DNA of 64,000 bases from Steroidobacteraceae bacterium (GCA_036004505.1 DASYRK010000033.1:52184-116183), one strand, 5' to 3'. Shown: positions 3,001-25,499, numbered from the stretch's first letter. Translations and numbers: made by a program. The notes: generated by a model not told the origin, from the letters alone.

Positions 3001-3670
3001 CACCGCGGGCGGGCGCTGCGACAGCTGCGACGGGCAGGGCATACGCCGCATCGAGATGAGCTTCCTGCCGGATGTGCGCGTGATCTGCGATACCTGCGGC
3101 GGCCGCCGCTTCAATCACGACACGCTCACCATTGAGTACAAGGGCAAGAACGCCGGCGACGTGCTGAGGATGAGCGTCGACGATGCGGTCGAGTTCTTCG
3201 CAGCGCATCCGCGCATTCATCACGCATTGCGGCTGCTGCAGGACGTCGGTCTCGGCTATCTCACGCTCGGGCAGCAGAGTCCGACGCTGTCCGGCGGCGA
3301 GGCCCAGCGCATCAAGCTCGTGACCGAGCTGTCGAAGGTGAGTTACACCAGTGCGCGCGCGAACGGCAACTCGCACGGTACTTTGTACGTTCTCGACGAG
3401 CCGACGGTCGGTCTGCACATGGCGGACGTCGAGAAACTGATCCGCGTGCTGCATCGGCTGGTCGATGCCGGCAACACCGTGGTCGTGATCGAGCACGATC
3501 TCGACGTGATCGCGGAAGCGGACTGGATCATCGATCTCGGGCCGGAAGGCGGCGAGGAGGGCGGACGCATCGTCGTGCAGGGAGCGCCGGACGACGTCGC
3601 GCGCGCCGCGCGCAGCTCGCACACCGGCCAGGTGCTGCGCACGTTTCTGCAGGAGCGCTCAGCTCGCTAG
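2..3670 (+). CDS. uvrA: Excinuclease ABC subunit A, double-length (tandem-fused) form; 5' truncated by window edge
   Basis: Frame is open back to base 2 ([21 protein letters not shown]). Three ABC cassettes are visible (GSGKS Walker A x3, LSGGEAQR signature x3, DEPT Walker B x3) with CxxC zinc fingers: the second cassette of one UvrA unit fused to a complete second unit. Confidence 0.93.
1018..1095. repeat. 78-bp element bounded by a perfect 23-bp inverted repeat (REP-doublet/MITE-like), in frame inside uvrA
   Basis: GAAATGGGGACATTCCTCATTTC (1018-1040) is the exact reverse complement of GAAATGAGGAATGTCCCCATTTC (1073-1095). Each arm is itself a near-palindrome. Length 78 = 26 codons. Confidence 0.85.
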
Positions 3671-6131: not shown

Positions 6132-9062
6132 ATGTCGACGAGTAACTCTATTCGGCACGCGGTTCGATACGCGCTGCTAACGAGCGCTGCGGCCGCCGCC
6201 GCAGGGCCCGCATTTGCGGCAGATCAGACGATTCAGGAAGTCGTCGTTACCGGTTCGCGCATCGCGCAGCCGAATCTCGAGACCACCAGCCCGGTTACGC
6301 AAGTCACGGCGGATGACATTGCAGTGCAGGGCGTGACGAGAGTCGAAGACCTCGTCAATCAGCTGCCGCAGGCCTTCGCCGCTCAGAACGCCAACGTTTC
6401 GAACGGTTCGACGGGTACTGCGACAGTCAACCTGCGTGGCTTGGGCTCGCCTCGCACGCTGGTGCTGATCGATGGCCGTCGTATGCCGTATGGCGGCGTG
6501 ACGAACTCTGCAGCCGACCTGAACCAGATCCCGGCCGCAATGGTCGAGCGCGTTGAAGTGCTGACCGGCGGCGCGTCCGCTGCGTACGGTTCGGACGCGA
6601 TCGGCGGCGTCGTCAACTTCATCATGAAGAAGGACTTCGAGGGCGTGCAGTTCGATGCGATGTACGGCCTCTATCAGCACAACAACGATTACGGCGGCCC
6701 CGGCGCCACGAAGCTGCGCGATGTGATCGCGGGCCGCGCTGCCACGAACCCGGCGCAGTTCAAGCTGCCTGATGACAACGTGACCGACGGCGAAGCGCGC
6801 GAGTTCAACATCACGATGGGCGTGAGCACCGAAGACGGCCGCGGCAACATCACCGCGTACGCCGGCGTCCGTGACGACAAGCAAGTGCTGCAGAGAGACC
6901 GCGACTACTCCGCGTGCTCGCTGAGCGCGAACCCAACGGTGCAGTTTGCCTGCGGCGGTTCGGACACCTCGTACCCGGGCTACTTCTACGGCGGCGGCCA
7001 GGGCCTGACCGTCTCGGGCAGCGACTTCATTCCCTACGATCCGAACGCAAACCGCTACAACTTCGGCCCGGTGAATCATTACCAGCGGCCGGACCGGCGC
7101 TACACGCTGGGCGCGATGGGTCACTATGAGCTCGCCGAAGTCGCCGACGTCTACACGCAGTTGATGTTCGCGGACTACGAGTCAGTCGCCCAGATCGCTC
7201 CGGGCGGTGCCTTCTTCGACACCAACACCATCAATTGCGGCAACCCGTTGCTGTCCGCTCAGCAGGCGGCAACTATCGGTTGCGACGCCGCGGCGATTGC
7301 GGCAGACACGATCGTTCCCCTCTACATCGGTCGGCGCAACGTCGAGGGCGGTGGACGCCAATCGAGGTTCGAGAACACCTCGTTCCGCGCTCTGCTCGGC
7401 GTTCGCGGCCAGATCTCCGAGAACTGGGACTACGACGCCTCGGTACAGTACTCATCCGTCGTTGCGGACCAGTCGGCCAACAACTACTTCCACAAGACCC
7501 GCCTGGCGCGCGCACTGGACGTCGTGACCGATCCGAATACCGGCGCGCCGACGTGCCGCTCGGTCCTCGATGGCAGCGATCCGAACTGCGTCCCGTACAA
7601 CCTGTTCACGATTGGCGGCGTAACACCGGAGGCTTTGAACTACCTCCAGGTGCCCGGCCTGCAGCAGGGCAAGATCGAGCAGGAGATCTACTCTGCGTCG
7701 GTCACGGGTGATCTCGGTGCTTACGGCATCAAGCTCCCGACGGCCACAGAGAGCATCAAGGTGGCGTTCGGCGTCGAAAGCCGTCGCGACAGTCTGAAGA
7801 ACGTGACCGACGATCCGACGTCCCAGGACCTCCTGTCGGGTGCTGGCGGCGCGACGATCGGAATATCGGGTTCCACGGACGTCATTGATGTCTTCACCGA
7901 ACTTCGTGTTCCGCTGGTGCAGGACAAGCCGTTCGCCGATCAGCTGGGCCTGGAGCTCGCGTATCGCTACTCCGACTACGATCCGGTCACCACCGACACC
8001 TACAAGATCGGTGCGGACTGGGCGCCGGTGCAGGACGTGCGGTTCCGCGCCAGCTACCAGCGTGCGATTCGCGCGCCGAACGTCGTCGAGCTGTTCACCG
8101 CGCAGGGCTTCAACCTGTTCGATCTGCCGGGCGATCCCTGCGGTGTCGATCAGCCCACGGCTACTCGCGATGCCTGTATTGCGAGCGGCGTGCCGGCAGC
8201 GGTATTCGACGATCCGGCCCGTCGGGCGCGTCTGGACAGCCCTGCTGGCCAGTACAACTTCCTGCAGGGCGGCGACGTCAACCTGCAGCCCGAAACGTCG
8301 GATACGTACACGTACGGCGTGATCTTCCAGCCGCGGTTCCTGCCGCACCTGGCGATGTCGATCGACTACTTCGACATCTCCATCGAGGACACGATCTCCG
8401 TGGTCGGAGCCGACACCACCCTGCGTGCCTGCTACGACTTGGGGATCCAATCGTCCTGCGGCCTGGTTGTGCGCAATCCGGGTAACGGTTCGCTGTGGCA
8501 AGGCGATGGACACGTGATCGACCTGAACACCAACATCGGTTCGCTCTCGACGAAGGGTGTGGACCTGAGCCTGAGCTACACCGGCGTCGAGCTGGGCGGC
8601 ATGGGCGAGTTGAGCTTCAACCTGGTCGGTACGTATCTGGATGAGCTGACCTACATCTCGGGCATTCCGGGCGACGTCCCGACCGAGTGCAAGGGCAAGT
8701 ACTCCGGCGCCCTCTGCGGCATCCCGAACCCCGACTGGCGGCATCACTTCCGCATGGGTTGGGAGACGCCGTGGAACGTCGACCTGTCGCTCACCTGGCG
8801 CTACTACGCCGAGGTGTCGAACATCGTCCCGGCGACCGCTGCCAACATCGACTACAAGCTCGGTTCGCGGAACTACTTCGACCTCGCGGCGAACTGGGCT
8901 GTGACCGAGAAGGCGTCGGTGCTGTTGGGCATCAACAACATCCTCGACAAGGATCCGCCGATCACGTCGGCGACGGGTACTACGGGTAACGGCAACACGT
9001 TCCCGCAGACCTACGACGCGCTGGGCCGCTGGATCTTCCTGCGCGCTTCGGTCGGGTTCTGA
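6132..9062 (+). CDS. TonB-dependent receptor (Oar-like, cysteine-rich loops)
   Basis: Signal peptide, TonB box EVVVTGSRI, plug motifs (NLRGLG, LVLIDGRR, ERVEVLTGGASAAYGSDAIGGVVNFI), C-terminal GINNILDKDPP...FLRASVGF and a strong AGGAGG SD. Confidence 0.96.
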   Translation: MSTSNSIRHAVRYALLTSAAAAAAGPAFAADQTIQEVVVTGSRIAQPNLETTSPVTQVTADDIAVQGVTRVEDLVNQLPQAFAAQNANVSNGSTGTATVNLRGLGSPRTLVLIDGRRMPYGGVTNSAADLNQIPAAMVERVEVLTGGASAAYGSDAIGGVVNFIMKKDFEGVQFDAMYGLYQHNNDYGGPGATKLRDVIAGRAATNPAQFKLPDDNVTDGEAREFNITMGVSTEDGRGNITAYAGVRDDKQVLQRDRDYSACSLSANPTVQFACGGSDTSYPGYFYGGGQGLTVSGSDFIPYDPNANRYNFGPVNHYQRPDRRYTLGAMGHYELAEVADVYTQLMFADYESVAQIAPGGAFFDTNTINCGNPLLSAQQAATIGCDAAAIAADTIVPLYIGRRNVEGGGRQSRFENTSFRALLGVRGQISENWDYDASVQYSSVVADQSANNYFHKTRLARALDVVTDPNTGAPTCRSVLDGSDPNCVPYNLFTIGGVTPEALNYLQVPGLQQGKIEQEIYSASVTGDLGAYGIKLPTATESIKVAFGVESRRDSLKNVTDDPTSQDLLSGAGGATIGISGSTDVIDVFTELRVPLVQDKPFADQLGLELAYRYSDYDPVTTDTYKIGADWAPVQDVRFRASYQRAIRAPNVVELFTAQGFNLFDLPGDPCGVDQPTATRDACIASGVPAAVFDDPARRARLDSPAGQYNFLQGGDVNLQPETSDTYTYGVIFQPRFLPHLAMSIDYFDISIEDTISVVGADTTLRACYDLGIQSSCGLVVRNPGNGSLWQGDGHVIDLNTNIGSLSTKGVDLSLSYTGVELGGMGELSFNLVGTYLDELTYISGIPGDVPTECKGKYSGALCGIPNPDWRHHFRMGWETPWNVDLSLTWRYYAEVSNIVPATAANIDYKLGSRNYFDLAANWAVTEKASVLLGINNILDKDPPITSATGTTGNGNTFPQTYDALGRWIFLRASVGF

Positions 9063-12588: not shown

Positions 12589-13535
12589 CGTGGCATTGTA
12601 GCCGCGTGCAAGCGCAGGAGGCGTTCGAGTTGCGGCCGCGCGAGCGAGTCGATCGCCCGACGCAGCTCGGCCGAAGCGGCGCCCTGCTTGCTGGCAACGT
12701 CGGATTTGAACTCCGCAGCCGTGCCGATTGCGGCTTTCGCGTGCCGCCGCGCCCCCTCGGCGATCCGGTCCCGTTGCGAGGGATCGACCGATAGCGAGAA
12801 GTGTGGCGCGACGATCTCCCATACTGCGGCCGGCAGCGACTCATACGGCACCAGCCGTCCCCGGCCGGCGTCGAGCCCCGCAGCCGCCGCGCAGAATGCG
12901 CCATAAACGCTCGCCACGAACTCTTCCCGCGATTTCGCAGCGTGGTCGGGATCCACGCGCGCGGCGAGCTCGCGAGCCGCCTCCGCCGTGCCCTGGAACC
13001 AGCCCGGCGGACTCGCGATGAGCGACACGCCCACCTCGACCGGATCGCGAAAACTCAGCACCCACGGCGTGTCCGGGAAGGCTTCCGCCACGACGTCGCA
13101 ATAGAGCGTGTTCCAGCTGCTCAGCTTCAGGACGTAGCGCCCACGCGCGTGGCGCGCGAACGCGGCTGCCAACGATCGCAGCGCTGCGACCCGATCGGCG
13201 CGCGGCCAGCGATGCGGGGGCGCGAGGATTTCGTTGACCGGCTGGGGCTCGGCGTACACGACCAGGCCGTCGAGCCGCTTGAGCGACTGCGAAACCAGCG
13301 TCGAGCCGCACCGTGCAACATGAAAGATGATTCCGGACGGCGCCGCCTCGCGCGCCAGCCGGGCGCCATCCCGGACGACCTGCACGATCCGCTCCTCGGC
13401 CGGGACCCGCGCGATCGTCTCCTGCATGAACGCGTCCTGCAGCTCGTCGCGGCCGATCTGGCGGAGCGCCAGGTACAGGCCGGTCGGCGCCAGTCCCGCG
13501 CGCACCGGAAGTCCGGCCTCCTCATCCTGCTGCAT
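12585..13535 (-). CDS. Sulfotransferase-like P-loop protein
   Basis: GIIFHVARCGSTLVSQ, YAEP, VLKLSSW, LSFRDPVEV. Start taken at MQQDEE (13535). Confidence 0.72.
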   Translation of the reverse strand: MQQDEEAGLPVRAGLAPTGLYLALRQIGRDELQDAFMQETIARVPAEERIVQVVRDGARLAREAAPSGIIFHVARCGSTLVSQSLKRLDGLVVYAEPQPVNEILAPPHRWPRADRVAALRSLAAAFARHARGRYVLKLSSWNTLYCDVVAEAFPDTPWVLSFRDPVEVGVSLIASPPGWFQGTAEAARELAARVDPDHAAKSREEFVASVYGAFCAAAAGLDAGRGRLVPYESLPAAVWEIVAPHFSLSVDPSQRDRIAEGARRHAKAAIGTAAEFKSDVASKQGAASAELRRAIDSLARPQLERLLRLHAATMPR

Positions 13536-13630
13536 GGCGCGAAGAGAACACTGGCGCGTCGCGGGTGTCAACGCTCGCTCACGCCTGCCGCTTCGTGACT
13601 ACGCTGAGCGTCGATGCTAGCGTGCCGGCC

Positions 13631-14824
13631 ATGACGGATTTCGCGAGCTTCATCGCGCCCTGCGACGCGGCGGCCTTTCGAGCGCAGCACTTCGGCACGC
13701 GCCCGGTTCACATTCGCCGCGAGGCGGCGGGCCCTGCGGCTGCGCTGAGCTGGCAGCGCTTCAACGAGGTGCTCGGCATCGCGCCGTACTGGAACGAGGA
13801 CACGCTCAAGGTCTATTTCAAGAATCGCGCGGCGCTGCGCGAGAACTACTGCGACACGACCGACCTGCGCCCAGGCACGAAGGCGCCGGCCGACCCGGCC
13901 AAGGTCAAGGCGCTGCTCGGGCTGGGTGCGAGCCTGGTCGCGAATCACGTTCACCGCGTCTGCCCGGAAGTCGCGTCGATCGCGCAAATGCTGGAACGCG
14001 AGTTCGCTGCGCGCGTCGCCGCCAACGTCTATTGCTCCTTCAAGGGAGTGCAGGCGTTCCAGACGCACTTCGATCTGCACGACGTGTTCGCGGTGCAGAT
14101 GGAGGGCGAGAAGACCTGGCGCGTCTACGAGTCGCGCGCCGATGCGCCCGTGTTGCCGCTACCGCCCGGCGAAGAGATCGAGAAGTGGCTCACCGCGAGT
14201 CGCGGGCGGCTGCTGTTCGAAGCCGAGATGAAGCCCGGTGACATCCTGTATCTGCCGCGTGGCCAGTACCACGACGCGTTGACGGGCGCGCAGGCATCGC
14301 TGCACGTCTCTTTCGGAGTAACGCCCGCGACCGGGCTTGCGTTGTTCAAACTGCTGGAGAACGCGCTCACCGCGGAAAGCGCATTTCGACAGTACCTGCC
14401 GGATGCGCGCAATCAGGCGGAGCTGCGTCAACGACTCGCAACGCTCGCGCAGCGCGTCCAGGCCGTGATGACATCGCCGGCATTCGCGACCGACGTGCTC
14501 AATCATCAGCGCGGCCTGGCTGGCCCGCGTGCGGACTTCGAGTTGCCGACGCAGGTGCAACCGACGTGGTACTCGATCGCGCGGCGCGCACAGGTCGTGC
14601 GACGCGACAGCGGCCATGTCGCAGTTACGGACCAGGGCGAGATCGCGCTCGGCGCGACGCATCCGACCGTCGAGTGGATTCTGAGGCAGCGTCTGTTCTC
14701 GCTGGGCGATGCACTCGCGCGCCATGCGAGCACGGATCCGGCGGAGCTGCGCGGCGTGCTCGCGCAGCTGATCGCGGCCGGAGTGATCGTCGAGACTGAA
14801 ATGAAGTCGGAGGGACTTGCATGA
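13631..14824 (+). CDS. JmjC/Cupin_4 (YcfD/RoxA-like) 2OG-Fe(II) hydroxylase
   Basis: ANVYCSF..AFQTHFDLHDVFAVQMEGEKTWRVY...PGDILYLPRGQYHDA (HxD...H), plus a C-terminal winged-helix-like tail. Confidence 0.88.
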   Translation: MTDFASFIAPCDAAAFRAQHFGTRPVHIRREAAGPAAALSWQRFNEVLGIAPYWNEDTLKVYFKNRAALRENYCDTTDLRPGTKAPADPAKVKALLGLGASLVANHVHRVCPEVASIAQMLEREFAARVAANVYCSFKGVQAFQTHFDLHDVFAVQMEGEKTWRVYESRADAPVLPLPPGEEIEKWLTASRGRLLFEAEMKPGDILYLPRGQYHDALTGAQASLHVSFGVTPATGLALFKLLENALTAESAFRQYLPDARNQAELRQRLATLAQRVQAVMTSPAFATDVLNHQRGLAGPRADFELPTQVQPTWYSIARRAQVVRRDSGHVAVTDQGEIALGATHPTVEWILRQRLFSLGDALARHASTDPAELRGVLAQLIAAGVIVETEMKSEGLA

Positions 14825-15312
14825 ATCGTTGGGTGATCGTGGCGGCAGGGGCAGTCGTGTTGTCGGGCACGGGCTTTACGCCCGCGAAGGCGGCGGAGCG
14901 GACGACCGAGGCGATGCTCGCCTGCGGGGACGAATCCGACGATGCGCAGCGGCTGCGTTGTTTCGATGCTGTCGTGGCGAACCTGCGCAAAGCGCCGTCG
15001 CCGGCCGCCGCGCCTCAACCCGCAACGCCGGCGCCCACTCCTGAGCAGAAGTTCGGTGCACGCGGCGATATCAAGCCGGACCGGCATGAAGTTCTGAATG
15101 AGATCAGTGCGACGGTCACGGCTCTCGGGACGAAGCCGCATGGAGAGCTGATCGTCACGCTCGACAACGGTCAGGTGTGGGCCGAGATCGCGGCGAACTC
15201 GAGGGTCAAGCTCAAGACCGGCGACACGGTGAAGATCGAGCGCGGCGCGCTCGGCTCGTACTCTCTGGTCACGCCGAACGGCCGCTCGAGCAAGGTCTCG
15301 CGGATCCGGTGA
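14821..15312 (+). CDS. Small exported protein, paralogue 1 (C-x8-RL-x-C-[FY]D hairpin + LDNGQxW beta domain)
   Basis: Signal peptide, ACGDESDDAQRLRCFD, ISATV..GELIVTLDNGQVW. Overlaps both neighbours (ATGA, TGATG). Confidence 0.8.
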   Translation: MNRWVIVAAGAVVLSGTGFTPAKAAERTTEAMLACGDESDDAQRLRCFDAVVANLRKAPSPAAAPQPATPAPTPEQKFGARGDIKPDRHEVLNEISATVTALGTKPHGELIVTLDNGQVWAEIAANSRVKLKTGDTVKIERGALGSYSLVTPNGRSSKVSRIR

Positions 15313-16352
15313 TGCTCAGTCTCGCTGCTTCGCCCGATGTCTACCTGCAGAAGGTCGACCTGGCGCGCGATGCTGCGTTGCTCGTCCAGCTGAATGAGGG
15401 CGCGTACCGGGCTGCGAGCTTTCTCGACGACCGCATCCTCGCGCCTGACGTCAAAGGCGGATGGGCGAGCCTCAGGAGCGTGCTGGACGCGGCGCAGACG
15501 CTCGGCGAGCGCATGCCGCTGCATTTCATCTTTCACACCGGCCACGTCGGCTCGACGCTCCTCAGCCGCCTGCTCGATGAGAGCGGGTGCGTGCTGTCGC
15601 TGCGCGAGCCGCTGCCGTTGCGCTCGCTGGCCGATGCGCACGACACGCTGGAGTTGCCGGAATCGCTGCTGAGCCGGCGCGACTTCGATGCTCTGGAGCA
15701 GGCGCTGCTGACGATCTGGAGCCGCGGATATGCCGCTACGCACTCGGTCGTTCTCAAAGCGACCAGCAGCGCATGCAGGATCGCGGCGCGGCTGCTGGAA
15801 CGGCACGATCGTGCGCGCGCTGTCTATCTGAATCTGGCCGCGGAGCCGTATCTCGCGACGCTGCTGGCCGGCCAGAACTCCGGCATCGATTTGCGCGGGC
15901 ACGGACCGGTGCGCATTCGTCAGCTGCAGGCGCGCATCGCGACACGGTTGCCGCCGTTGCATGCGTTGTCGCTCGGCGAAATGGCTGCGATGAGCTGGCT
16001 CGCCGAGACCTGGAATCAGCACGATGCCGTCACGCGCCTGGGCGCGCGCATCATGAGTCTCGATTTCGACGACTTCCTCGGCGATATCGCCGGCGGAGTC
16101 GGTCGCGTCGCCGCGCATTTCCAGTTGCCGCAGGACTCGCGTTGGCTCTCCGAGGTTGCGCGCAGCCCGGTGCTGACGCGCTACTCCAAGTCGCCGGACT
16201 TCGAGTACTCGCCGCAGGTGCGGCGCGAGCTGCTGCGCCAATCGCGGCAGAATAACGCAGCGCAGATCGCCACGGGTCTGCGCTGGCTCGAGAGCCTGGC
16301 GAAATCGCAGCCCGCTGTGGCGGCGGTCCTGGATGCGAGGAGACCCGGATGA
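15312..16352 (+). CDS. Sulfotransferase-like P-loop protein with degenerate PAPS motifs
   Basis: FIFHTGHVGSTLLSRLL, LREP, VVLKATS; homologous to 12585-13535. ATG at 15312 is coupled to the upstream TGA. Confidence 0.68.
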   Translation: MLSLAASPDVYLQKVDLARDAALLVQLNEGAYRAASFLDDRILAPDVKGGWASLRSVLDAAQTLGERMPLHFIFHTGHVGSTLLSRLLDESGCVLSLREPLPLRSLADAHDTLELPESLLSRRDFDALEQALLTIWSRGYAATHSVVLKATSSACRIAARLLERHDRARAVYLNLAAEPYLATLLAGQNSGIDLRGHGPVRIRQLQARIATRLPPLHALSLGEMAAMSWLAETWNQHDAVTRLGARIMSLDFDDFLGDIAGGVGRVAAHFQLPQDSRWLSEVARSPVLTRYSKSPDFEYSPQVRRELLRQSRQNNAAQIATGLRWLESLAKSQPAVAAVLDARRPG

Positions 16353-17275
16353 CCGACGCGGCCGCGCTCACGACGCTCGGCAAGCGCCTGCTGATCGGCG
16401 ATGGCGTGCCGATGTCGATGGACAAGGCCATCGCGACTCTGCGCGACGCAGCTGCGCGGGGCGGCGGCGAGGCGGCGGCACTGCTTGCAGTTTGTACTGC
16501 ATGGGGCGTCGGGCAGGCGCGCAGTGTCGATAACGCACTCGATCATCTCGCTCGCGCGGCGGAGCTCGGCTGGAATCCTGCGTTGCGCGAGCTGCAACTC
16601 CTGGCTCGTGATCAAGGCGCGGACCCGATGGCTCTGCGACGCAAGGTCGACGTCGCGTCGCTGCGTGCGCCGCCAGGTGCTCGCGTTGCATTCGAGCGGC
16701 CGCGCATCGTCGTGCTGGAGCGCTTCGCGACGCCGGAGGAATGTCAGTGGCTGATCGGCCGTGCCGGCAGCGGGCTGCAGCGCGCGAAGGTTTATCGAGA
16801 CAGCTCGACGGCCCAGGTCGCCGAGACGCGCACCAATCGCGAGATGGCGCTCACGATCTTCAGCGCGGATGTTGCCCTCAGCCTGATTCGCGATCGCATC
16901 GCCGCGGTGAGCGGCGAGCCGGTGACGCATTTCGAGATCGCGAAGCTCCTGCACTATTCGCCGGGCGAACAGTTCGCGTTGCACGCGGACTTCATCGAGG
17001 CGAAGACGCCGGAGCTGGCGCGCGAGCTCGCAGCGCGTGGCCAGCGTGCGGCGACGTTCCTGATTTACTTGAACGAAGGCTACGAAGGCGGCGCGACGCA
17101 GTTCCCGCGGCTCGACTGGCAGTATCGCGGCGGGCGCGGCGACGCGCTGCTGTTCAGCAACGTCGACGCCAACGGCGCGCCCGATTACGACACCGTGCAC
17201 GCCGGCATGCCGCCGACCTCCGGTGACAAGTGGGTGCTGTCGCAGTGGATCCGCAATCGGCCGGTCGGACCCTAG
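16349..17275 (+). CDS. Sel1-repeat + prolyl-4-hydroxylase-type 2OG-Fe(II) oxygenase
   Basis: Two Sel1-like repeats, then LLHYSPGEQFALHADF, TFLIYLNEGYEGGATQFP and VHAGMPPTSGDKWVLSQWIR. Confidence 0.88.
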   Translation: MTDAAALTTLGKRLLIGDGVPMSMDKAIATLRDAAARGGGEAAALLAVCTAWGVGQARSVDNALDHLARAAELGWNPALRELQLLARDQGADPMALRRKVDVASLRAPPGARVAFERPRIVVLERFATPEECQWLIGRAGSGLQRAKVYRDSSTAQVAETRTNREMALTIFSADVALSLIRDRIAAVSGEPVTHFEIAKLLHYSPGEQFALHADFIEAKTPELARELAARGQRAATFLIYLNEGYEGGATQFPRLDWQYRGGRGDALLFSNVDANGAPDYDTVHAGMPPTSGDKWVLSQWIRNRPVGP

Positions 17276-18756
17276 ATGTCGAGTTCGATTCCAGCTTCGC
17301 GGAGACGGGTCTGCAGCGGCGCGACGTGCGCCGCGTAGTTGCGCCAACGGCCCGAGGAGCGATGATACAGACGCTCACGCACTTGCCACACGCTCGCGGT
17401 TTTCACTGCGCGCGCTGACTGCTCGAACGACAGGCACGCTTCTTCCCATTCGAGACCGCAGAACGCCGTGAGTTTTTCGATGACCGGGCGCGGCTCGTGC
17501 ACCAGCCTGTCGTAGTCGAGATCGAAGATGTCCGCGCCATAGAGCGTCTTCCAGTGCGCCAGCAACCGTCGGTACTGGACGTAGTAATGCGCGATGTCCG
17601 CGAGATCGAGCGAGTAGCTCATGCTGTGATCGAGATGCAGGAAGTAGATCGACAGGCAGTTGTCGAGCGGATCGCGGGTCGTGTGCACGATCCGGGCGTC
17701 CGGAAACAGGCTCTTGATGAGGCCGATGTACAGAAAATTGTCCGGGCGCTTGTCCGTGACTCGGTCGCCGCGCGGGAACAGTCGCGCGAGCATGTCCAGA
17801 TAGCGCGCGGACAGTTGCTCCAGCTGAGCCTGCGTCACACTTTGCATCGTGGCTGGAAACGGCGCGAGCGTCGTGCGCACGAGTGAGGGCAGGAATGCCA
17901 GCTCGCCACCCGCCGTCACGCGCGAGTGCGCGGCGAGGATCTGCTCCGCGAGCGTCGAGCCGGAGCGAAACATCCCGCAGATGAACAGCGGACGCGTGGA
18001 CTGCGACGAGCGTGCTGCTGCGGGCTGACCCGGCCGGAACGTCGCGATCAGCTCGTCGACGAAACGCTCGTGCGCGCGCGCGTCGTAGACGCCAGTGCCC
18101 GGCGCAGCGCTCTGCCGACTGTCTCGATTCGCGGCTGCGTAAGCGGCAAACGCGGCGTCCCACGCCTTGCAGGAGTCCAGCGCCTTGCCGAGTGCGAAGC
18201 CGAGTTCTGCGCGATCTGCAGGCGACGTGCGCGCGTCAGCGATTGCCGCGCGCAACCTCGCGACCAGCGGATCGTCAGCGCCCGCAACCTTGTGCAACCC
18301 CGCGTAGCGCGCCAACGCGGTATGGCAGCGCGGATCGAGCGCCAGGATTTTCTCGTAGAGCGCGCTTGCTTCTGCCTGCTTGCCGAAGTCTTCGCGCAGG
18401 TTCGCGAGATTGAGCAGGGCAGGGACGTAAGCAGGCTCGAGCGCCAGCGCCGCCTGCAGCTCGCGCTCGGCCGCGTCGTCCTGGCGCAGGTAGTCGGAAT
18501 AGATCACGCCGCGGTTGAGGTGAACTTCTTCGGGCCCGGAGACGCCGCGATCGAGCGCCTGCTGATAGGAGGCGAGCGCGGCATCGAAGCGTCCTGCGCG
18601 CCGCTGTAGCAGCGCGAGGTTGTACCAGGTGTCCGGCAGATCGGGCCAGCGCGCGAGCAGGCGCTGATAGACGGCTTCGGCCTCAGTGAGGCGCCCGGCC
18701 TTCTCCAGCGCTGCCGCGCTGTGCAGCAGAGCCTGCGGATCGCTGCTGTCGCCCAT
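17272..18756 (-). CDS. TPR-repeat sulfotransferase
   Basis: About 4 TPRs (WYNLALL, HLNRGVI, ALLNLANL), then PLFICGMFRSGSTLAEQIL, DKRPDN and IVHTTRDPLDNCLS. Confidence 0.9.
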   Translation of the reverse strand: MGDSSDPQALLHSAAALEKAGRLTEAEAVYQRLLARWPDLPDTWYNLALLQRRAGRFDAALASYQQALDRGVSGPEEVHLNRGVIYSDYLRQDDAAERELQAALALEPAYVPALLNLANLREDFGKQAEASALYEKILALDPRCHTALARYAGLHKVAGADDPLVARLRAAIADARTSPADRAELGFALGKALDSCKAWDAAFAAYAAANRDSRQSAAPGTGVYDARAHERFVDELIATFRPGQPAAARSSQSTRPLFICGMFRSGSTLAEQILAAHSRVTAGGELAFLPSLVRTTLAPFPATMQSVTQAQLEQLSARYLDMLARLFPRGDRVTDKRPDNFLYIGLIKSLFPDARIVHTTRDPLDNCLSIYFLHLDHSMSYSLDLADIAHYYVQYRRLLAHWKTLYGADIFDLDYDRLVHEPRPVIEKLTAFCGLEWEEACLSFEQSARAVKTASVWQVRERLYHRSSGRWRNYAAHVAPLQTRLREAGIELDI

Positions 18757-18768
18757 ATCTCGAGAGCG

Positions 18769-19434
18769 CTACGTGGTCGTCCACATGCGCATCAGGTTCT
18801 GGCGCACGACGTCGAGCCGCACGCGGTTCTCCCAGCGCATCGTGGTGCCTTCGAGCGCGGCGATTTCGTTCAGCTCGTACACCTGCATGCGCAGATGCGG
18901 ATCGGCGATGAAGCTTTCGATGAACGTGATCGCCACCAGCCGCTCGCCGGAGCGCACCGGAATGACTTCGTGCAATGTGGTCGAGGGGTACAGGATCGCT
19001 TCACCCGCTGCGCCCTTGAACGCGATCGCCTGGTTGCCGATGATGATAGACAGCTCGCCGCCCTGGTACGTCGCGGGCTCGCTGATGAACACCGTACAGG
19101 AAACGTCCGAGCGCAGCCGCGCGGCTCCCAGCGGAATGAGCGCGGCGTCCGCGTGCGCACCGTACTTCATGCCCGGCGAATAGCGGCTCATGAGCGGCGG
19201 CGCGACGCGCTTCGGCAGTGCGAAATCCATGAACTCGCGCGAGCGCGCGAACGCGCCGCTCACCAGCTGCGACACCTCGGCGTTCTTCGGATCGCTGGTG
19301 TCGGCCTGCTGGTTGTTCTTGGTCTCGTTGGCGGGATTGCTGGCGCGACCTTCGACGAAGCGCAGCTCCTGGCTCAACGTGGTCAGCCGCGCGATCTCCG
19401 GCGGCGTCAGCAAATTGCGAATCTTCAGCAGCAC
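18769..19434 (-). CDS. PKHD-type (PiuC/YbiX-like) Fe(II)/2OG hydroxylase
   Basis: PPLMSRYSPGMKYGAHAD, RSDVSCTVFISEPATYQGGEL, YPSTTLHEVIPVRSGER. GTG start at 19434 has an AGGAG SD. Confidence 0.88.
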   Translation of the reverse strand: MLLKIRNLLTPPEIARLTTLSQELRFVEGRASNPANETKNNQQADTSDPKNAEVSQLVSGAFARSREFMDFALPKRVAPPLMSRYSPGMKYGAHADAALIPLGAARLRSDVSCTVFISEPATYQGGELSIIIGNQAIAFKGAAGEAILYPSTTLHEVIPVRSGERLVAITFIESFIADPHLRMQVYELNEIAALEGTTMRWENRVRLDVVRQNLMRMWTTT

Positions 19435-19459
19435 GACGGATCTCTCCTGCAGGAAACAT

Positions 19460-20653
19460 CTAGACGCTCGAGCTCGGTTGCGTGCCGTTGAAGGCATCGG
19501 TCGCCGCGATCACCTGACCGATCGCCGCGCGCTCTTGCGGCGACAGCCGCGGACTCCACACGTCGCAGATGAAAATGATGCGGGTCTGGTCGCTGTCGTT
19601 CCAGGCCTCGTGCTCGATCGTATCGTCGAACACCCAGGCTTCGCCCAGGCGCCACTGGCGCGTTTCGCCGCCGACGCGGAAGCCGCAGCCCGGCGGCACG
19701 ATCAGCGGCAGGTGCACGACCAGCCGGAAGTTGGCAATGCCAGTGTGCGGCGGGATGCGCGTGTGCGGCTGGAGCACGGAGAACAGCGCCGACGGCGAGC
19801 GCAGCGGCACCTGCGCCTGTGGCAGCCGCGCCAGGACCTGCATCGTTGCCGGCGCCCGGTTGCAGCGCTCCGCGATCGGTTGCCCCTTCTCGTAGAAATG
19901 AAAGGCGCTCCAGCGCGGCGAATGATTCAGCTCGCGCCACTGGTCGAGCGGCATGCGATCGTCGTAGTGAATGTACGGCGCGAACCCGGCCTGGTCCTCG
20001 CGCAGGATTCCCGCCAGCTCGCGCTGCATCGGCTCGGTCGCCGCTTCCAGCTCCTCCAGCCACGGAAACTCCGCACGCTCGTAGAACTCGATCGCTGGCA
20101 GGCCCGGGAAGTAGTACTCGAGCGGCTCCTGCTGGTAGCGCTTGCGGACGCGCAGCGTCGTCGCGATGAACGCCTCGACGCGCTGCTGCTCGGCCGGTGC
20201 GCATTGGCGCTGCGTTTCGCCGACCCGCGCGCGGATGAAGTCGTGCAGCTCGCCCGTGTGCCGGCCGTGGATTTCGCGCCCGTGGGCGACAGCCTGACGC
20301 GTCGGCTCGTCCAGGTACTGGTCCGGAGGAGCGTTCGAAAGAGCAGCGCCATAGGTACTCGCTGCCGCCTTCATCCGGCCTTCCCGCTCCAGCAGCGTTG
20401 CGCTCATCAACAGCGCCGGGAAGTTCCGCGGCTCGATCCGCATGACCTCGCCCAGGGCGGCGAATGCGCCTTCGGAATTGTTCAGGCGGCGCCGGACGGC
20501 GGCGAGATTCAGCCAGCCCGGAATGCTGGCCGGGTCGGCGGCGACCAGTCGCAACAGCAGCGCCTCCGCCGTGGCGAAATCGCCAGCCGCGAGCGCCTGC
20601 ATGGCTGCCTTGTTCAGGCCGGCGGGATTCTCACCATGGGAATGCGGCTGCAT
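19460..20653 (-). CDS. TPR + aspartyl/asparaginyl beta-hydroxylase domain protein
   Basis: TPRs, then WSAFHFY, FSVLQPHTRIPPHTG, VVHLPLIVP and WVFDDTIEHEAWN. Start uncertain. Confidence 0.88.
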   Translation of the reverse strand: MQPHSHGENPAGLNKAAMQALAAGDFATAEALLLRLVAADPASIPGWLNLAAVRRRLNNSEGAFAALGEVMRIEPRNFPALLMSATLLEREGRMKAAASTYGAALSNAPPDQYLDEPTRQAVAHGREIHGRHTGELHDFIRARVGETQRQCAPAEQQRVEAFIATTLRVRKRYQQEPLEYYFPGLPAIEFYERAEFPWLEELEAATEPMQRELAGILREDQAGFAPYIHYDDRMPLDQWRELNHSPRWSAFHFYEKGQPIAERCNRAPATMQVLARLPQAQVPLRSPSALFSVLQPHTRIPPHTGIANFRLVVHLPLIVPPGCGFRVGGETRQWRLGEAWVFDDTIEHEAWNDSDQTRIIFICDVWSPRLSPQERAAIGQVIAATDAFNGTQPSSSV

Positions 20654-20767
20654 GTCGAAGAAAGCTCGAGGTCGAGTGCGTGGCGCCACTATAGCGTCCC
20701 CACTATCGCCCGGTCATGGGTCATAATGCGCCGCCGCGCGGTGAGCTGTGCGGCCGCAATCACGCTC

Positions 20768-21775
20768 ATGAACATCAACGAGATCGACCGGGTGCTCGCG
20801 GCAGAGCCGCGCAATGTTCGCGCCCTTATTCTCAAGGCGGATCATCTGGCGAGTGCCGGCGACGCGCGCGCGGCTTCGTCGTTCTACCTTGCGGCGCTGC
20901 GGGCCGCCGGACCTGCGCAGCAGGTGCCGCGGGAGCTGCTGCCGGACCTGCAGCGGGCGCGCTCGATGTACGAGCGCTACGCGAACGAATACCAGGACTA
21001 CATCGTCAGTCAGCTCGCGGCGCGCGGCTTCGACCGGGCCACCAGCAGTCAGCGGTTCGCGCAGTCGCTCGACATCGTCCTCGGCAAGAAGCGGATCTAC
21101 CTGCAGCAGCCTCGCTACTACTACTTTCCGGGCCTGCCGCAGATCCAGTTCTACGGGCGCGAGCAGTTCCCGTGGCTCGATGCGCTGGAGCGCGAGACCG
21201 ATGCGATCGCCGCCGAGCTGCAGGCGGTGATGCAGCAACCCACCTCGTTCGCACCGTACGTGCAACCCAAGGCCAATCGCCCGCCGAACGAGCAGGCGGG
21301 CATGGTGAACAATCCCGCGTGGAGCGCTTTCTATCTATGGAGGAACGGCGAGGTCGTCGCCGAGAACGCTGCGCGTTGTCCGCGCACGATGCAGGCGCTG
21401 CAGGACGTGCCGCTCGCGCGCGTGGCGAACCGCTCGCCATCGATCCTGTTCTCGCTACTGCAGCCCGGCGCGCACATTCCGCCGCACAATGGCCTGGTCA
21501 ACACGCGGTTGATATGTCACTTGCCGCTGATCGTGCCGGCGCAGTGCACGTTCCGCGTCGGCAACGATCAGCGCGACTGGCAGCAAGGGCAAGCCTGGCT
21601 GTTCGACGACACGATCGAGCACGAGGCGTGGAATCGCAGCGCCGAGACCCGCGTCATCCTGTTGTTCGATGTGTGGCGGCCGGAGCTTTCGGCAGAAGAG
21701 CGTGAGCTGGTCGTGGCGCTGTTCGACGCGATCGACGCGCACGGCGGCGGCCGCAAGCCCGAGTGGGAGATCTAG
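20768..21775 (+). CDS. TPR + aspartyl/asparaginyl beta-hydroxylase domain protein
   Basis: C-terminal part of the listed 19190..21775 ORF: WSAFYLW, FSLLQPGAHIPPHNG, ICHLPLIVP, FDDTIEHEAWN. Start at MNINEID (alternative 20726). Confidence 0.88.
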   Translation: MNINEIDRVLAAEPRNVRALILKADHLASAGDARAASSFYLAALRAAGPAQQVPRELLPDLQRARSMYERYANEYQDYIVSQLAARGFDRATSSQRFAQSLDIVLGKKRIYLQQPRYYYFPGLPQIQFYGREQFPWLDALERETDAIAAELQAVMQQPTSFAPYVQPKANRPPNEQAGMVNNPAWSAFYLWRNGEVVAENAARCPRTMQALQDVPLARVANRSPSILFSLLQPGAHIPPHNGLVNTRLICHLPLIVPAQCTFRVGNDQRDWQQGQAWLFDDTIEHEAWNRSAETRVILLFDVWRPELSAEERELVVALFDAIDAHGGGRKPEWEI

Positions 21776-22263
21776 AGGACCCGTTTGACCTTGAGGACGC
21801 GGCCGCTCGGCGTCGACATCCGGAACGAGTTCAGCGCCGCGCGCGAGATCGTGACTTCATGACCGACTTCCAGGAGCGGCGAGCTCGAGCCGCTCGTCTG
21901 ACGCCACTGCTGTCCGTTGTCGAGATTGATGACGAGCGCACCGCTGGCGTCGTGACTCAACGCGGTGACGTGCGCGCTGACCGAAGTCAGCTCTTCCCGT
22001 TCGATCTTCTGTGCCGGCTCGGTCCCGCGCATGCTCGATGCGCCGAAGCTGGCTTCGGCTGAGCGCTCCGGTGCGGCGGCCGCTGAGTCGGACGACAGGT
22101 GCTCGATCGTCCGGTCGTAGCACGCCAGCCGCTCGGAACTATTTTTCACGTTGGCGCAGGCCCGCAGCGCCGGCGGCACGGCATCTGCGGCCGCGTGTAC
22201 GACGCCAGCGCCAAGCAAAACAACGGCGGCGACGGCGAACGTCGAGGTGCAACGTGCAGGCAT
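21772..22263 (-). CDS. Small exported protein, paralogue 2
   Basis: Signal peptide, ACANVKNSSERLACYD, VSAHV..GALVINLDNGQQW. ATG at 22263 is coupled to the upstream TGA. Confidence 0.8.
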   Translation of the reverse strand: MPARCTSTFAVAAVVLLGAGVVHAAADAVPPALRACANVKNSSERLACYDRTIEHLSSDSAAAAPERSAEASFGASSMRGTEPAQKIEREELTSVSAHVTALSHDASGALVINLDNGQQWRQTSGSSSPLLEVGHEVTISRAALNSFRMSTPSGRVLKVKRVL

Positions 22264-23564
22264 CAGTGTTTCTCGCCGAGGGGCGCCGAGTCGTCGTAAT
22301 ACCGCGCGATGCCCGTCACCATTGCGCTGACCAGATCGCGCTCGGCCGCGGTCAGGTACGGATTCCAGACATCCAGGATGAGGATCGCGCGCGGCATGTT
22401 GCTGTCGTTCCATGCTTCGTGCTCGATCGAATCGTCGAACACCCAGGCTGCACCGGGCAGCCACTCGCGAGTCGTCGAGCCGACACGGAAGCGGCAGCCC
22501 GGCGGAATGATCAGCGGCATGTGCACGATCACCCGCGTGTTGGTGACGCCGGTATGCGCAGGAATGTGCGACTTCGCGTCGAGGATCGAGAAGAACACGG
22601 TCGGTGCGTACCCGGCGATCTGCAGCAGCGGCAGCGTACTGAGCAGTTGCGCCGTGCGGGGACAGCGCTGCAGGTGTTCCTCGACAGGCTTACCGTCACG
22701 CCACAGATAGAAGGCGCTCCAGCGGCGCGAGTGATTCAGCTCGGCCCACTGATCGAGCGGCACGCCCTGCGGATAAGCGACGTACGGTTCGAGGCTCGCG
22801 GCGTCCTCGGTAAAGACGCGCTCGAACTCCTCGCGAATGTCGGCGGTCGCAGCTTCGAGCCTATCGAGCCACGGAAACTCCGCGCGCGGATAGAACTCGC
22901 GCGCCGGCAGCTGCGGGAAATGCAGGAACGTCGGCTGCGGCGTGAAGATCCGCCGGCGGCCGAGGAAACCGGCGACGCAGTGGTCGAAGCGATCCTGCTC
23001 CGCAGCGGCATGGCGCGTGCGCAAGTCCTGAAGCTGCTCGCCCAGATGAGATTCGAGCGCTGCGTCGTTCGCTTTGGTTGCTTCGACCGCCTTGTCGATC
23101 AGCCCGCGCAGCGCGCCGGGAAGGCTCGCGCCCGGCGCAATGGTCTGCAGCGCGTTGTGATACACCTTCGCAGCGGCTCGCGTCTTGCCTTGCGATTCCA
23201 GCAGCGTTGCTTTTTGCAATAGTGCGAACAAGTGCCGCGGTTCCACTGCAAGCACGCGCTCGATGATCCCCATTTCATCGGCAGCGAGCCCCAGGCGGCG
23301 CAGCGCGCCCGCGAGATTCATCAACAGGCGCGTGTTCGCGCCGTCGCGCGCGACCGCGCGTTCCAGCAACTCGCGCGCGGCAGCTGCATTACCGCTGCGT
23401 AACTCGCGCAGGGCGGTCTCGTTGAGGATTGCAGGATGCTCGGGATCGACGGCTTTGACGCGCAGGAGCAACGCATCGGCGCGCGCACGATCACCGTTTG
23501 CGAGTGCGCGCTCAGCGTGCGCGATCAGCTCGCTGACCTCGCTGGCTGCCTGCGTCGCGCTCAA
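22263..23564 (-). CDS. TPR + aspartyl/asparaginyl beta-hydroxylase domain protein
   Basis: About 4 TPRs, then WSAFYLW, FSILDAKSHIPAHTG, IVHMPLIIP and FDDSIEHEAWN. TTG start has a GAGGAG SD. Confidence 0.88.
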   Translation of the reverse strand: MSATQAASEVSELIAHAERALANGDRARADALLLRVKAVDPEHPAILNETALRELRSGNAAAARELLERAVARDGANTRLLMNLAGALRRLGLAADEMGIIERVLAVEPRHLFALLQKATLLESQGKTRAAAKVYHNALQTIAPGASLPGALRGLIDKAVEATKANDAALESHLGEQLQDLRTRHAAAEQDRFDHCVAGFLGRRRIFTPQPTFLHFPQLPAREFYPRAEFPWLDRLEAATADIREEFERVFTEDAASLEPYVAYPQGVPLDQWAELNHSRRWSAFYLWRDGKPVEEHLQRCPRTAQLLSTLPLLQIAGYAPTVFFSILDAKSHIPAHTGVTNTRVIVHMPLIIPPGCRFRVGSTTREWLPGAAWVFDDSIEHEAWNDSNMPRAILILDVWNPYLTAAERDLVSAMVTGIARYYDDSAPLGEKH

Positions 23565-23647
23565 TCGAATCTCCTCACCGCCGATCTGAGTAGTCCGGGC
23601 AGTCTAGCAAGCGTGCGCGGCATGATCGACAATGCAGCAGGCCTTCA

Positions 23648-24382
23648 TTGTCCTTTTGTGCGCAGACGATCGTGCCTGCAGTCTTCTCCCTCGCGATCCT
23701 GGTGTCGTTGCTCGCCTGCAGCGCGCGTGCGGATGCCGTCGACAAGGCGTCGAAGGAATCCTTCGAGTTCGCCGGACTGAAGCGCAACTACGCGCTGTTC
23801 GCGCCGCCGACGGTGGCTGCGTCGGGCGCGCCGCTGCTCGTGTTGCTGCACGGCTCGTTTGGCAGCGGCGCTGCGATCGTCAGCTGGTGGATGCCGCTCG
23901 CGCAAGAAGAGGGCATCGTGCTTGCGGGGCCGGACGCGCGCGAGACCGAGGCGTGGCAGCTACGGGCGGACGGACCGGAGTTCATTCGCGCGCTGATCGA
24001 CGACGTGGCCGCGAAACATTCGATCGATCGCAGCCGCATCTATCTGTTCGGCAGCTCCGGCGGCGCCGTCTATTCGCTGACGTTGTCGATGCTGGAGTCG
24101 GAATTGTTTGCGGCGACTGCGGTGCACGCGGGCGCGTGGCGCCAGCCGAGCGAGTTCCGCGCCGTGCCGTACGCGCGCCGCAAGATTCCGATTGCGATCT
24201 TCATCGGCGATCGCGACGAGTACTTTCCGTTGATCGCCGTGCGCAAGACGCAGAAGGCGCTCGAGCGGGCGGGTCATAGCGTGAGCGTCACGGTGATCCC
24301 GCGTCACCGCCACGCATATTCGGAGGTCGCTGCCGAGGTGAACCGCAGCGCGTGGGAATTTCTGAAGGGCAACCGACTATGA
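23648..24382 (+). CDS. Exported alpha/beta-hydrolase (PHB-depolymerase/LpqC-like esterase)
   Basis: Hydrophobic N-terminus, LLVLLHGS, IDRSRIYLFGSSGGA (GxSxG), GDRD and a C-terminal His. Exact start uncertain. Confidence 0.75.
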   Translation: MSFCAQTIVPAVFSLAILVSLLACSARADAVDKASKESFEFAGLKRNYALFAPPTVAASGAPLLVLLHGSFGSGAAIVSWWMPLAQEEGIVLAGPDARETEAWQLRADGPEFIRALIDDVAAKHSIDRSRIYLFGSSGGAVYSLTLSMLESELFAATAVHAGAWRQPSEFRAVPYARRKIPIAIFIGDRDEYFPLIAVRKTQKALERAGHSVSVTVIPRHRHAYSEVAAEVNRSAWEFLKGNRL

Positions 24383-24855
24383 CAACGATGTACCCGACTC
24401 TTGCCGCAGTGTTGCTGGCAGCAGCGGCGATTCAACCTGCGCTGGCCGGCGACGATCTGTCGCAGCGCATCGCCGCGTGCACGCGCGAGCGGGACGACGC
24501 ACGACGCCTCGCGTGCTTCGATCGCGCGGCCGCGCCCGCAGCCGACGCGAAGAAGGTGGATGCGACGCAGGACTTCGGCGTTCACGGCAGCGAGCTGGCG
24601 CGCAACCGCGACGATGACGATCCCAAGCAGGACAACACACCGAAGCGCATCAGCGCCACGGTCGCCGGCGTCGAGAAGCGCGCGCGCGGCGAGCTCCTGG
24701 TGACGCTCGACAACGGCCAGGTCTGGGCGCAGAAAGAAGTGGGTCCATATTTTCCGCTCAAGGTCGGCGATGCGGTCTCGATCATTGCCGGCACGTTCGG
24801 CTCGCACAAGCTGGTGGTCGCGAGCCGCGCGACCGCAGTCACCCGGGTGCGCTGA
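24379..24855 (+). CDS. Small exported protein, paralogue 3
   Basis: Signal peptide, ACTRERDDARRLACFD, ISATV..GELLVTLDNGQVW. ATGA overlap with the esterase. Confidence 0.8.
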   Translation: MTTMYPTLAAVLLAAAAIQPALAGDDLSQRIAACTRERDDARRLACFDRAAAPAADAKKVDATQDFGVHGSELARNRDDDDPKQDNTPKRISATVAGVEKRARGELLVTLDNGQVWAQKEVGPYFPLKVGDAVSIIAGTFGSHKLVVASRATAVTRVR

Positions 24856-24857
24856 CC

Positions 24858-25499
24858 ATGGCCGACATCATGCCGTTCTTCGCCGTCCCGTTCGGGTTCG
24901 CGCGGCTCGACAACTGCGCGGCGGTGAACCAGGAATTGCGGACGCTGTTCCTCGCGCGCACCGCGGCCGGCGGCGAGCACGCCAATCCGCGGCCGCTCAC
25001 GCAGCGTAACAACCAGGTCTTCGAGAGCAACTTCGGGCTGTTCCGCTCGCAGGAGCGTTGCCTGCAGCAGCTCAAGGAATTCTGCTGGCGGCACCTGATC
25101 AAGTGCGTCTGCGACGTGAACGGGTACGACGACGCGATGCGCAGCCGGCTGCTGATCTACTCGGACGCGTGGTTCCACGTCACGCGGCGCGGCGGGTTCT
25201 TCGGTCTGCACAATCATCCGAACGCGTCGTGGTCCGGCGTGTATTGCGTGGATCCCGGTCAGCGCGGCAGCGGTCTGCTGTCGTTCGTCAATCCGCTGCT
25301 GGCGTCCAACATGTACCTCGACGCCGCGAACGCCAGCATGCGCGGCGCGTTTGCGTCCGGCGTGCGCCAGATCGATCTGGAGGCGGGCCAGCTGGTGCTG
25401 TTCCCATCATGGGTGCTGCACGACGTGAAGCCGTACGAAGGCGACGGCGAGCGCATCACTGTCGCGTTCAACTGCTGGTTCCAGCTGAAAGATGCTTAG
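24858..25499 (+). CDS. TIGR02466-like putative 2OG-Fe(II) oxygenase
   Basis: AWFHV..GGFFGLHNHPNASWSGVYCV...GQLVLFPSWVLHDVKPY...RITVAFN. Confidence 0.85.
   Translation: MADIMPFFAVPFGFARLDNCAAVNQELRTLFLARTAAGGEHANPRPLTQRNNQVFESNFGLFRSQERCLQQLKEFCWRHLIKCVCDVNGYDDAMRSRLLIYSDAWFHVTRRGGFFGLHNHPNASWSGVYCVDPGQRGSGLLSFVNPLLASNMYLDAANASMRGAFASGVRQIDLEAGQLVLFPSWVLHDVKPYEGDGERITVAFNCWFQLKDA

Follow-up and report, generated by a model that had tools for sequence, protein, structure and literature searches.

In this study, we identified three paralogous genes in a 64,000-nucleotide stretch of the genome of a Steroidobacteraceae bacterium (GCA_036004505.1 DASYRK010000033.1:52184-116183; hereafter the window), which encode exported proteins of hairpin-linker-barrel type. 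The products belong to a large, so far undescribed family, one clade of which has been recruited into, and triplicated in, an island of TonB-dependent receptor, hydroxylase and sulfotransferase genes. An earlier note made from this DNA had described the three products as uncharacterised exported two-domain proteins, each coupled to a hydroxylase operon, and had proposed them as dedicated components of the system and possibly its best marker. The genes, their motifs and their coupling proved to be as described, and a link to such loci holds in the bacterial order, but neither the dedication nor the use as best marker does.

The three open reading frames (ORFs; Table 1) were confirmed at the positions, strands and lengths first given. 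Their G+C content at third codon positions (GC3) is 0.80-0.82, the same as that of the adjoining genes, in a window with 66-69% G+C, and their products are homologous over the full length (BLASTP E values of 1e-27, 7e-23 and 9e-12; 27-39% identity). Every motif quoted in the earlier note was recovered in all three proteins, namely the hairpin motif C-x8-RL-x-C-[FY]-D (CGDESDDAQRLRCFD, CANVKNSSERLACYD and CTRERDDARRLACFD), an FG in the linker (KFGARG, SFGASS and DFGVHG), SA[TH]V, G-x-L-x-[VI]-x-LDNGQ-x-W and a terminal V-x-R-[IV]-[RL]. The N-termini are Sec/signal peptidase I signals with cleavage at AKA/AE, VHA/AA and ALA/GD (the slash marks the cut), and neither a lipobox nor a twin arginine was found in any of the three. 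An identity as bacterial lipoproteins was rejected, since there is no Cys at mature position +1, the first one being 10-12 residues into the mature protein. A profile search and a motif search, both of the whole 5.45-Mb assembly, found three copies only; the scan with the hairpin motif returned the three paralogues, one spurious frame and nothing else. A candidate fourth paralogue type (L004:3862-4353) was dropped, as it is the C-terminus of a TonB receptor.

An AlphaFold2 model of paralogue 1, built from an alignment of 31 sequences, predicts a confident hairpin and a confident barrel joined by a disordered linker, in line with the two modules proposed in the earlier note. The hairpin consists of helices 21-36 and 41-57 (predicted local distance difference test, pLDDT, ~90) with a turn flanked by C35 and C47, the Ala/Pro linker has a pLDDT below 50, and the barrel has six strands over residues 94-161 (pLDDT 87-95) and is reproduced by a barrel-only model (mean pLDDT 83). 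As modelled, the mature protein is thus a two-Cys hairpin of ~35 residues, an Ala/Pro spacer of ~50 residues ending in an invariant FG, and a six-stranded barrel of ~70 residues that carries an invariant NGQxW hairpin turn and the C-terminal VxR. The hairpin is probably stapled by a disulfide between C35 and C47. The invariant core of the family (C35, R44, L45, C47, D49, F78, G79, G108, L114, N116, G117, Q118, W120 and R161) is the same in enzyme-coupled and uncoupled members. Tandem relatives have a single hairpin followed by two to three units of FG plus barrel, therefore FG and barrel form a separable module. The repeat-bearing relatives include P0217 (2321 residues), P0129, P0137, P0175, P0131 and P0148, and one giant protein has 18 matched barrel stretches.

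Foldseek searches of the PDB with the whole and barrel-only models gave no match at E<=1e-3 (best E 0.028, TM score 0.35-0.44), and a profile search of PDB sequences was empty. The top Foldseek matches were small barrels of the oligonucleotide/oligosaccharide-binding (OB) type, such as IF1 and the OB-like domain of PBP1a (PDB 3d0f / PF17092), which are likewise six-stranded and of ~70 residues, and PF17092 weakly matches one tandem relative. However, with Foldseek E>=0.028, TM below 0.45, a root mean square deviation of 7-10 A and no sequence signal, these comparisons give no evidence of homology. The IF1/OB and 'biotin carboxyl carrier' labels of the JGI automatic annotation were not adopted, Foldseek having no match at E<=1e-3.

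Searched with a profile, a set of 1.84 billion representatives, clustered at 50% identity, yielded 8,356 clusters of the family at E<=1e-3 (4,735 at E<=1e-10), and the family is mainly gammaproteobacterial and uncurated. Neither the window proteins nor 66 relatives nor members from cultured species reached the threshold of any Pfam or NCBIfam model, and every homologue in cultured Pseudoalteromonas is named 'hypothetical protein'. In the literature, we found no paper on the family, or on clusters of receptor, TPR-sulfotransferase and AspH genes, beyond Iyer et al. 2010 (PMC2938197).

Each paralogue is translationally coupled to an enzyme gene, the genes overlapping or abutting as described in the earlier note. 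The JmjC gene and paralogue 1 overlap by ATGA, and paralogue 1 and the sulfotransferase-like gene that follows by TGATG; the TPR-AspH gene and paralogue 2 have 1 nt in common, and paralogue 2 is convergent with an AspH gene, with a 4-nt overlap; the esterase gene and paralogue 3 overlap by ATGA, and the gap from paralogue 3 to the TIGR02466 gene is 2 nt. The AspH, JmjC and sulfotransferase products have no signal peptide, and the esterase has one.

There is strong evidence that in the order Steroidobacterales the family is non-randomly tied to receptor, hydroxylase and sulfotransferase loci. The entire island is shared with close relatives. Among 80 loci found by the family motif, 63 have hydroxylase or sulfotransferase genes near the family gene and 8 more have a receptor only, and the enzyme directly upstream is usually AspH, TPR-AspH, esterase or JmjC. 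In 61 sampled relatives, an AspH domain is found no more than 5 kb from 31 of the 35 same-genus copies. The same picture came from a test that did not start from the family: of 14 orthologues of the window AspH (20726..21775; at least 52% identity), 13 have a family gene at the 3' end, either abutting it or at most 1 kb away. In other families of the order the gene is never near AspH (0/18), yet it repeatedly adjoins a large TPR-sulfotransferase or receptor gene, an adjacency that recurs in at least six families. On a maximum-likelihood tree of 117 family members, every enzyme-coupled lineage falls in one derived clade (78 rows, support 87), in which the JmjC-coupled copies form one clade (support 97) nested within the AspH-coupled copies, and the esterase-coupled and TPR-AspH-coupled copies form coherent groups. 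Among cultured carriers, Steroidobacter denitrificans has a copy coupled to the esterase (L094). Context labels change 28 times on this tree, against a mean of 70.7 when shuffled, and none of 200 shuffles was as low.

Even so, the family predates the island and extends beyond it, and some of its homologues have unrelated neighbours. In Shewanella intestini and Ferrimonas futtsuensis, the family gene is flanked by tatC and tatD (identified by Pfam; L079:8813-11231 and L067:9100-11178), and ORF spacing resembling tatC-X-tatD, judged by spacing only, was seen in Pseudoalteromonas, Opacimonas and an Alteromonadaceae metagenome-assembled genome (L102, L064 and L052). In the Alteromonadales, tatC, the family gene and tatD stand on one strand, followed in Shewanella by a 7TMR-DISM/GGDEF gene and hemB. 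The tatC-tatD setting hints at an envelope- or export-related core role of the family. Elsewhere, the gene lies between the genes for a SIS-domain protein and a sigma factor in Microbulbifer and beside those for a TPP enzyme and a CopZ-like protein in Sedimenticola, and MscL/thymidine kinase is another context. In two same-genus genomes, a lone copy adjoins uvrA and is convergent with it (L017:9672-13253 and L018:6799-10637). In the window, no family copy abuts uvrA, and the island, which starts ~2.5 kb away, may have expanded where the family gene originally stood. Among eight genomes with the family in non-island contexts, seven have no AspH domain, and both Sulfotransfer_3 and AspH are absent from S. 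intestini and F. futtsuensis. In an even sample of the class, the family was found in 8 of 300 genomes, six of them outside the order, a count that is a floor, as this first look scored 11 candidates per genome.

Conversely, five same-genus genomes (G031, G034, G016, G015 and G012; L109-L113) have no family gene in the syntenic island at E<=10 with filters off, and their islands hold TPR-sulfotransferase, 2OG oxygenase, TPR-AspH and AspH-sulfotransferase genes between the receptor and DUF192-glgC. Islands without the family and the family in genomes without the enzymes together mean that the family is neither needed for the island nor confined to it. The slot from the receptor to DUF192-glgC (6132-26206 in the window) is variable, and its compact versions are without JmjC, esterase, TIGR02466 and the small exported proteins. 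Since a family gene stands within 1.5 kb of only 24 of the 150 AspH domains, and the five syntenic islands have none, the proposal that the family would be the best marker of the system had to be given up. Its description as a dedicated component fails as well: within the order the tie is close (31/35 and 13/14) and each lineage has its own partner, but the family also stands in the tatC/tatD and uvrA contexts, and seven of the eight genomes with such contexts have no AspH.

Based on these patterns, we lean, tentatively, towards the reading that the three proteins serve the island as an optional accessory or binding module in the periplasm. The family would have a core function independent of hydroxylases and sulfotransferases. 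In the Steroidobacterales, one clade would have been captured into islands of TonB receptor and TPR-sulfotransferase genes and then duplicated, giving the three copies seen here, and each lineage would later have become translationally coupled to one enzyme gene, either AspH and then JmjC, or TPR-AspH, or the esterase. The accessory might act as a dock, a spacer and a binding barrel co-produced with each enzyme module, and its periplasmic partner, which it would bind or escort, may be the receptor or the product or uptake compound of the island. Several points weigh against such a role. The predicted binding function is drawn from the modelled architecture, and the structure searches gave no significant relative for the barrel. 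Why a binding protein that is exported would be coupled to cytoplasmic enzymes is also hard to see; such an arrangement would better suit an enzyme and its substrate. In Pfam and NCBIfam scans, the island showed neither an inner-membrane transporter nor a scaffold gene such as one for a non-ribosomal peptide synthetase (NRPS), and nothing else in it looks like a substrate of the enzymes; the lack of a transporter and that of another substrate both count here. Finally, the true breadth of the family is uncertain, few candidates having been scored per genome.

Alternatively, the paralogues could be the substrates themselves, hydroxylated in the cytoplasm before Sec export and possibly then sulfated to give modified periplasmic or surface proteins, the candidate sites being Asp/Asn of the Cys loop or of the DNGQ turn, or Pro of the linker. 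We regard this as possible, though unlikely. The specific, conserved and translationally coupled pairing, seen at 13 of the 14 orthologues of AspH and with a separate paralogue lineage for each type of enzyme, argues for it, as do the TPR domains of the enzymes, which are typical of protein-substrate recognition, the lack of any other candidate substrate or scaffold synthase in the island, the AspH-sulfotransferase fusion, which suggests hydroxylation followed by sulfation, and the invariant Asp/Asn in the Cys-bounded loop and the beta-hairpin turn. Dedicated substrates would, however, be expected to have target residues private to the coupled copies, and none was found, which lowers this reading: no D, N, P or Y column is private to the coupled clade or to the divergent AspH- and TPR-AspH-coupled subfamilies, the sole clade-specific change being one Glu in the Cys loop, and coupled copies show no enrichment of Pro, Ser/Thr, Tyr or Asp/Asn in the linker. 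Members from genomes without AspH and Sulfotransfer_3 have the same invariant residues as well, partners have been switched (the JmjC-coupled clade being nested inside the AspH-coupled one), and same-genus islands with AspH, TPR-AspH, AspH-sulfotransferase and TPR-sulfotransferase do without the family gene. Moreover, a cytoplasmic enzyme would face a reduced, unfolded pre-protein, and the substrates of eukaryotic AspH are folded, disulfide-bonded EGF domains. A fuller version, in which AspH, JmjC and P4H-type oxygenases together with sulfotransferases would each decorate their own paralogous client before export, after which the modified proteins would act together with the neighbouring TonB-dependent receptor, appears more doubtful still.

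The idea of a substrate has a precedent in Iyer et al. 2010 (PMC2938197), where secreted non-enzymatic proteins (collagen-like and tail-collar) co-encoded with beta-hydroxylase and sulfotransferase genes were predicted to be substrates, a role that is itself a prediction only. Like those proteins, the paralogues are small, secreted, non-enzymatic and inside operons of AspH-type hydroxylases, classical 2OG oxygenases, JmjC proteins and sulfotransferases; unlike them, they have another fold, lack Gly-X-Y or any other repeated target motif, and also exist without the enzymes. The TonB-receptor islands with JmjC/2OG oxygenases, SapC and halogenase described in the same paper likewise cluster a receptor gene with cytoplasmic Fe(II)/2OG oxygenases. 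As described there, they have no small exported hairpin-barrel protein, whereas the present island is without SapC, halogenase and NRPS.

It has also to be considered that the family is a general envelope housekeeping protein and a passenger in the island, in which case the coupling would stem from gene packing and local duplication and imply no functional bond with the enzymes or the receptor. The housekeeping contexts (tatC-tatD and uvrA), the genomes without the enzymes, the conserved core identical everywhere, the variability of the island region, its distance of only ~2.5 kb from uvrA and the lone copy by uvrA in two relatives are all consistent with this. We nevertheless consider it improbable, as 13 of 14 genomes keep the gene beside the same AspH subtype even where AspH identity falls to 52%, the TPR-sulfotransferase/receptor adjacency recurs in at least six families of the order, the three copies are within one island with none elsewhere in the genome, and the context labels follow the tree far more closely than when shuffled (28 changes against a mean of 70.7, with none of the 200 shuffles as low).

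The remaining candidate relationship is with VasI, also known as TagO, a type VI secretion system (T6SS) accessory protein whose function was given as unknown in a 2026 review (PMC13584744). The two have in common a signal peptide, the C-x8-RL-x-C-[FY]-D hairpin, a linker, a beta-rich domain and a similar overall size. Matches to PF11319 and TIGR03360 occur in all three proteins and in 37 of the 66 relatives, though below threshold: PF11319 scores 15.8-18.8 bits against a cut-off of 26.5 and TIGR03360 12.4-17.2 bits against 124.2, with the 66 relatives likewise below. An hhalign comparison of the family alignment with a true VasI (L107:565-1170) gave a probability of 93.5% over 39 columns. Nothing of the C-terminal domain of VasI (profile positions ~40-184), which in the true protein is longer and unrelated, aligns past the hairpin. 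Judged from these profile alignments, the N-terminal hairpin alone is homologous to the VasI/TagO N-terminus. A match to a known family, as envisaged in the earlier note, thus exists only for this module of 35-39 residues, the rest of the protein being unmatched. With no T6SS gene among the neighbours scanned at 3.6-30 kb of the window (receptor, hydroxylase, sulfotransferase, esterase and glycogen genes), no PF11319 match in this genome at E<=1e-10, scores below both cut-offs and an alignment confined to the hairpin, the view that the paralogues are divergent VasI/TagO-type T6SS accessory proteins is effectively refuted and membership of that family is rejected.

The island spans ~6.1-25.5 kb by Pfam and NCBIfam scans and is bounded by DUF192 and glgC. 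In addition to the genes at the junctions, it holds an AspH-sulfotransferase fusion and two TPR-sulfotransferases, and in all it has two TPR-AspH proteins with one shorter AspH, and two 2OG-FeII_Oxy_3 proteins. One of the latter (18769-19497) matches NF003974 (Fe2+-dependent dioxygenase, PRK05467 group) at 192.8 bits against a cut-off of 143, with a match below cut-off only to the YbiX-named model NF003972. It is of the hydroxylase type that classically goes with the TonB receptors Fiu and PiuA; in the gene pairs fiu-ybiX and piuA-piuC, as in the present island, a receptor gene is clustered with a cytoplasmic Fe(II)/2OG oxygenase, but a small exported hairpin-barrel protein is not known to be part of them. 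Two island proteins without family matches (12585-13571 and 15312-16352), both kept in related islands, have a sulfotransferase-like G-S-T-L(V/L)S motif (HVARCGSTLVSQ and HTGHVGSTLLSRL) and may belong to a divergent sulfotransferase or P-loop family. The esterase has partial sub-threshold matches to extracellular polyhydroxyalkanoate depolymerase models and a weak match to a lasso-peptide isopeptidase model. An open frame of 861 codons at 19190-21775 (+) is not a single gene, its first part being, by GC3, the antisense shadow of a TPR-AspH gene. A scan for promoters and terminators gave counts at the level of shuffled sequence.

Table 1. Positions of the three paralogues, the modules of paralogue 1 and surrounding genes in the window
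Feature	Position	Strand	Remarks
Paralogue 1 (P0001)	14821..15312	+	163 aa; JmjC-coupled lineage, tree clade support 97
Paralogue 1, signal peptide	14821-14892	+	aa 1-24
Paralogue 1, two-Cys helical hairpin	14893-14991	+	aa 25-57; C35, C47
Paralogue 1, FG	15052-15057	+	
Paralogue 1, six-strand beta-barrel	15100-15303	+	aa 94-161
Paralogue 2 (P0002)	21772..22263	-	163 aa; TPR-AspH-coupled lineage
Paralogue 3 (P0003)	24379..24855	+	158 aa; esterase-coupled lineage
uvrA	74-3670		
TonB-dependent receptor	6132..9062	+	anchors the island
Sulfotransferase-like protein	12585-13571	-	no family match
JmjC_2 oxygenase	13565..14824	+	no signal peptide; stop overlaps paralogue 1 start
Sulfotransferase-like protein	15312..16352	+	no Pfam/NCBIfam match; start overlaps paralogue 1 stop; kept in related islands
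2OG-FeII_Oxy_3 oxygenase	16349..17275	+	final gene of the paralogue 1 operon
2OG-FeII_Oxy_3 protein	18769-19497	-	NF003974
TPR-AspH	19460-20689	-	
AspH-type hydroxylase	20726..21775	+	start 20726 or 20768; convergent with paralogue 2
TPR-AspH hydroxylase	22263..23564	-	no signal peptide; directly upstream of paralogue 2
Exported esterase (alpha/beta hydrolase)	23648..24382	+	lipoprotein-like signal (LVSLLAC); stop overlaps paralogue 3 start
TIGR02466 / 2OG-FeII_Oxy_5 oxygenase	24858..25499	+	2 nt downstream of paralogue 3

Clusters of protein-type hydroxylases and sulfotransferases linked to a receptor occur widely in Proteobacteria, and what they act on has long been a blank. Among the non-enzymatic, non-receptor genes, only those for the small exported proteins show tight and specific coupling to given hydroxylase subtypes, and they therefore offer the most direct experimental handle on the targets of these enzymes, whether as clients or as partners. 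The family itself numbers thousands of clusters, yet neither Pfam nor NCBIfam has a model for it, it is without a structural relative and its only annotation is 'hypothetical protein'; the shared N-terminal hairpin may in turn illuminate the T6SS accessory protein TagO/VasI. If the paralogues were substrates that work with the receptor, they would represent a bacterial counterpart of hydroxylated and sulfated extracellular proteins.

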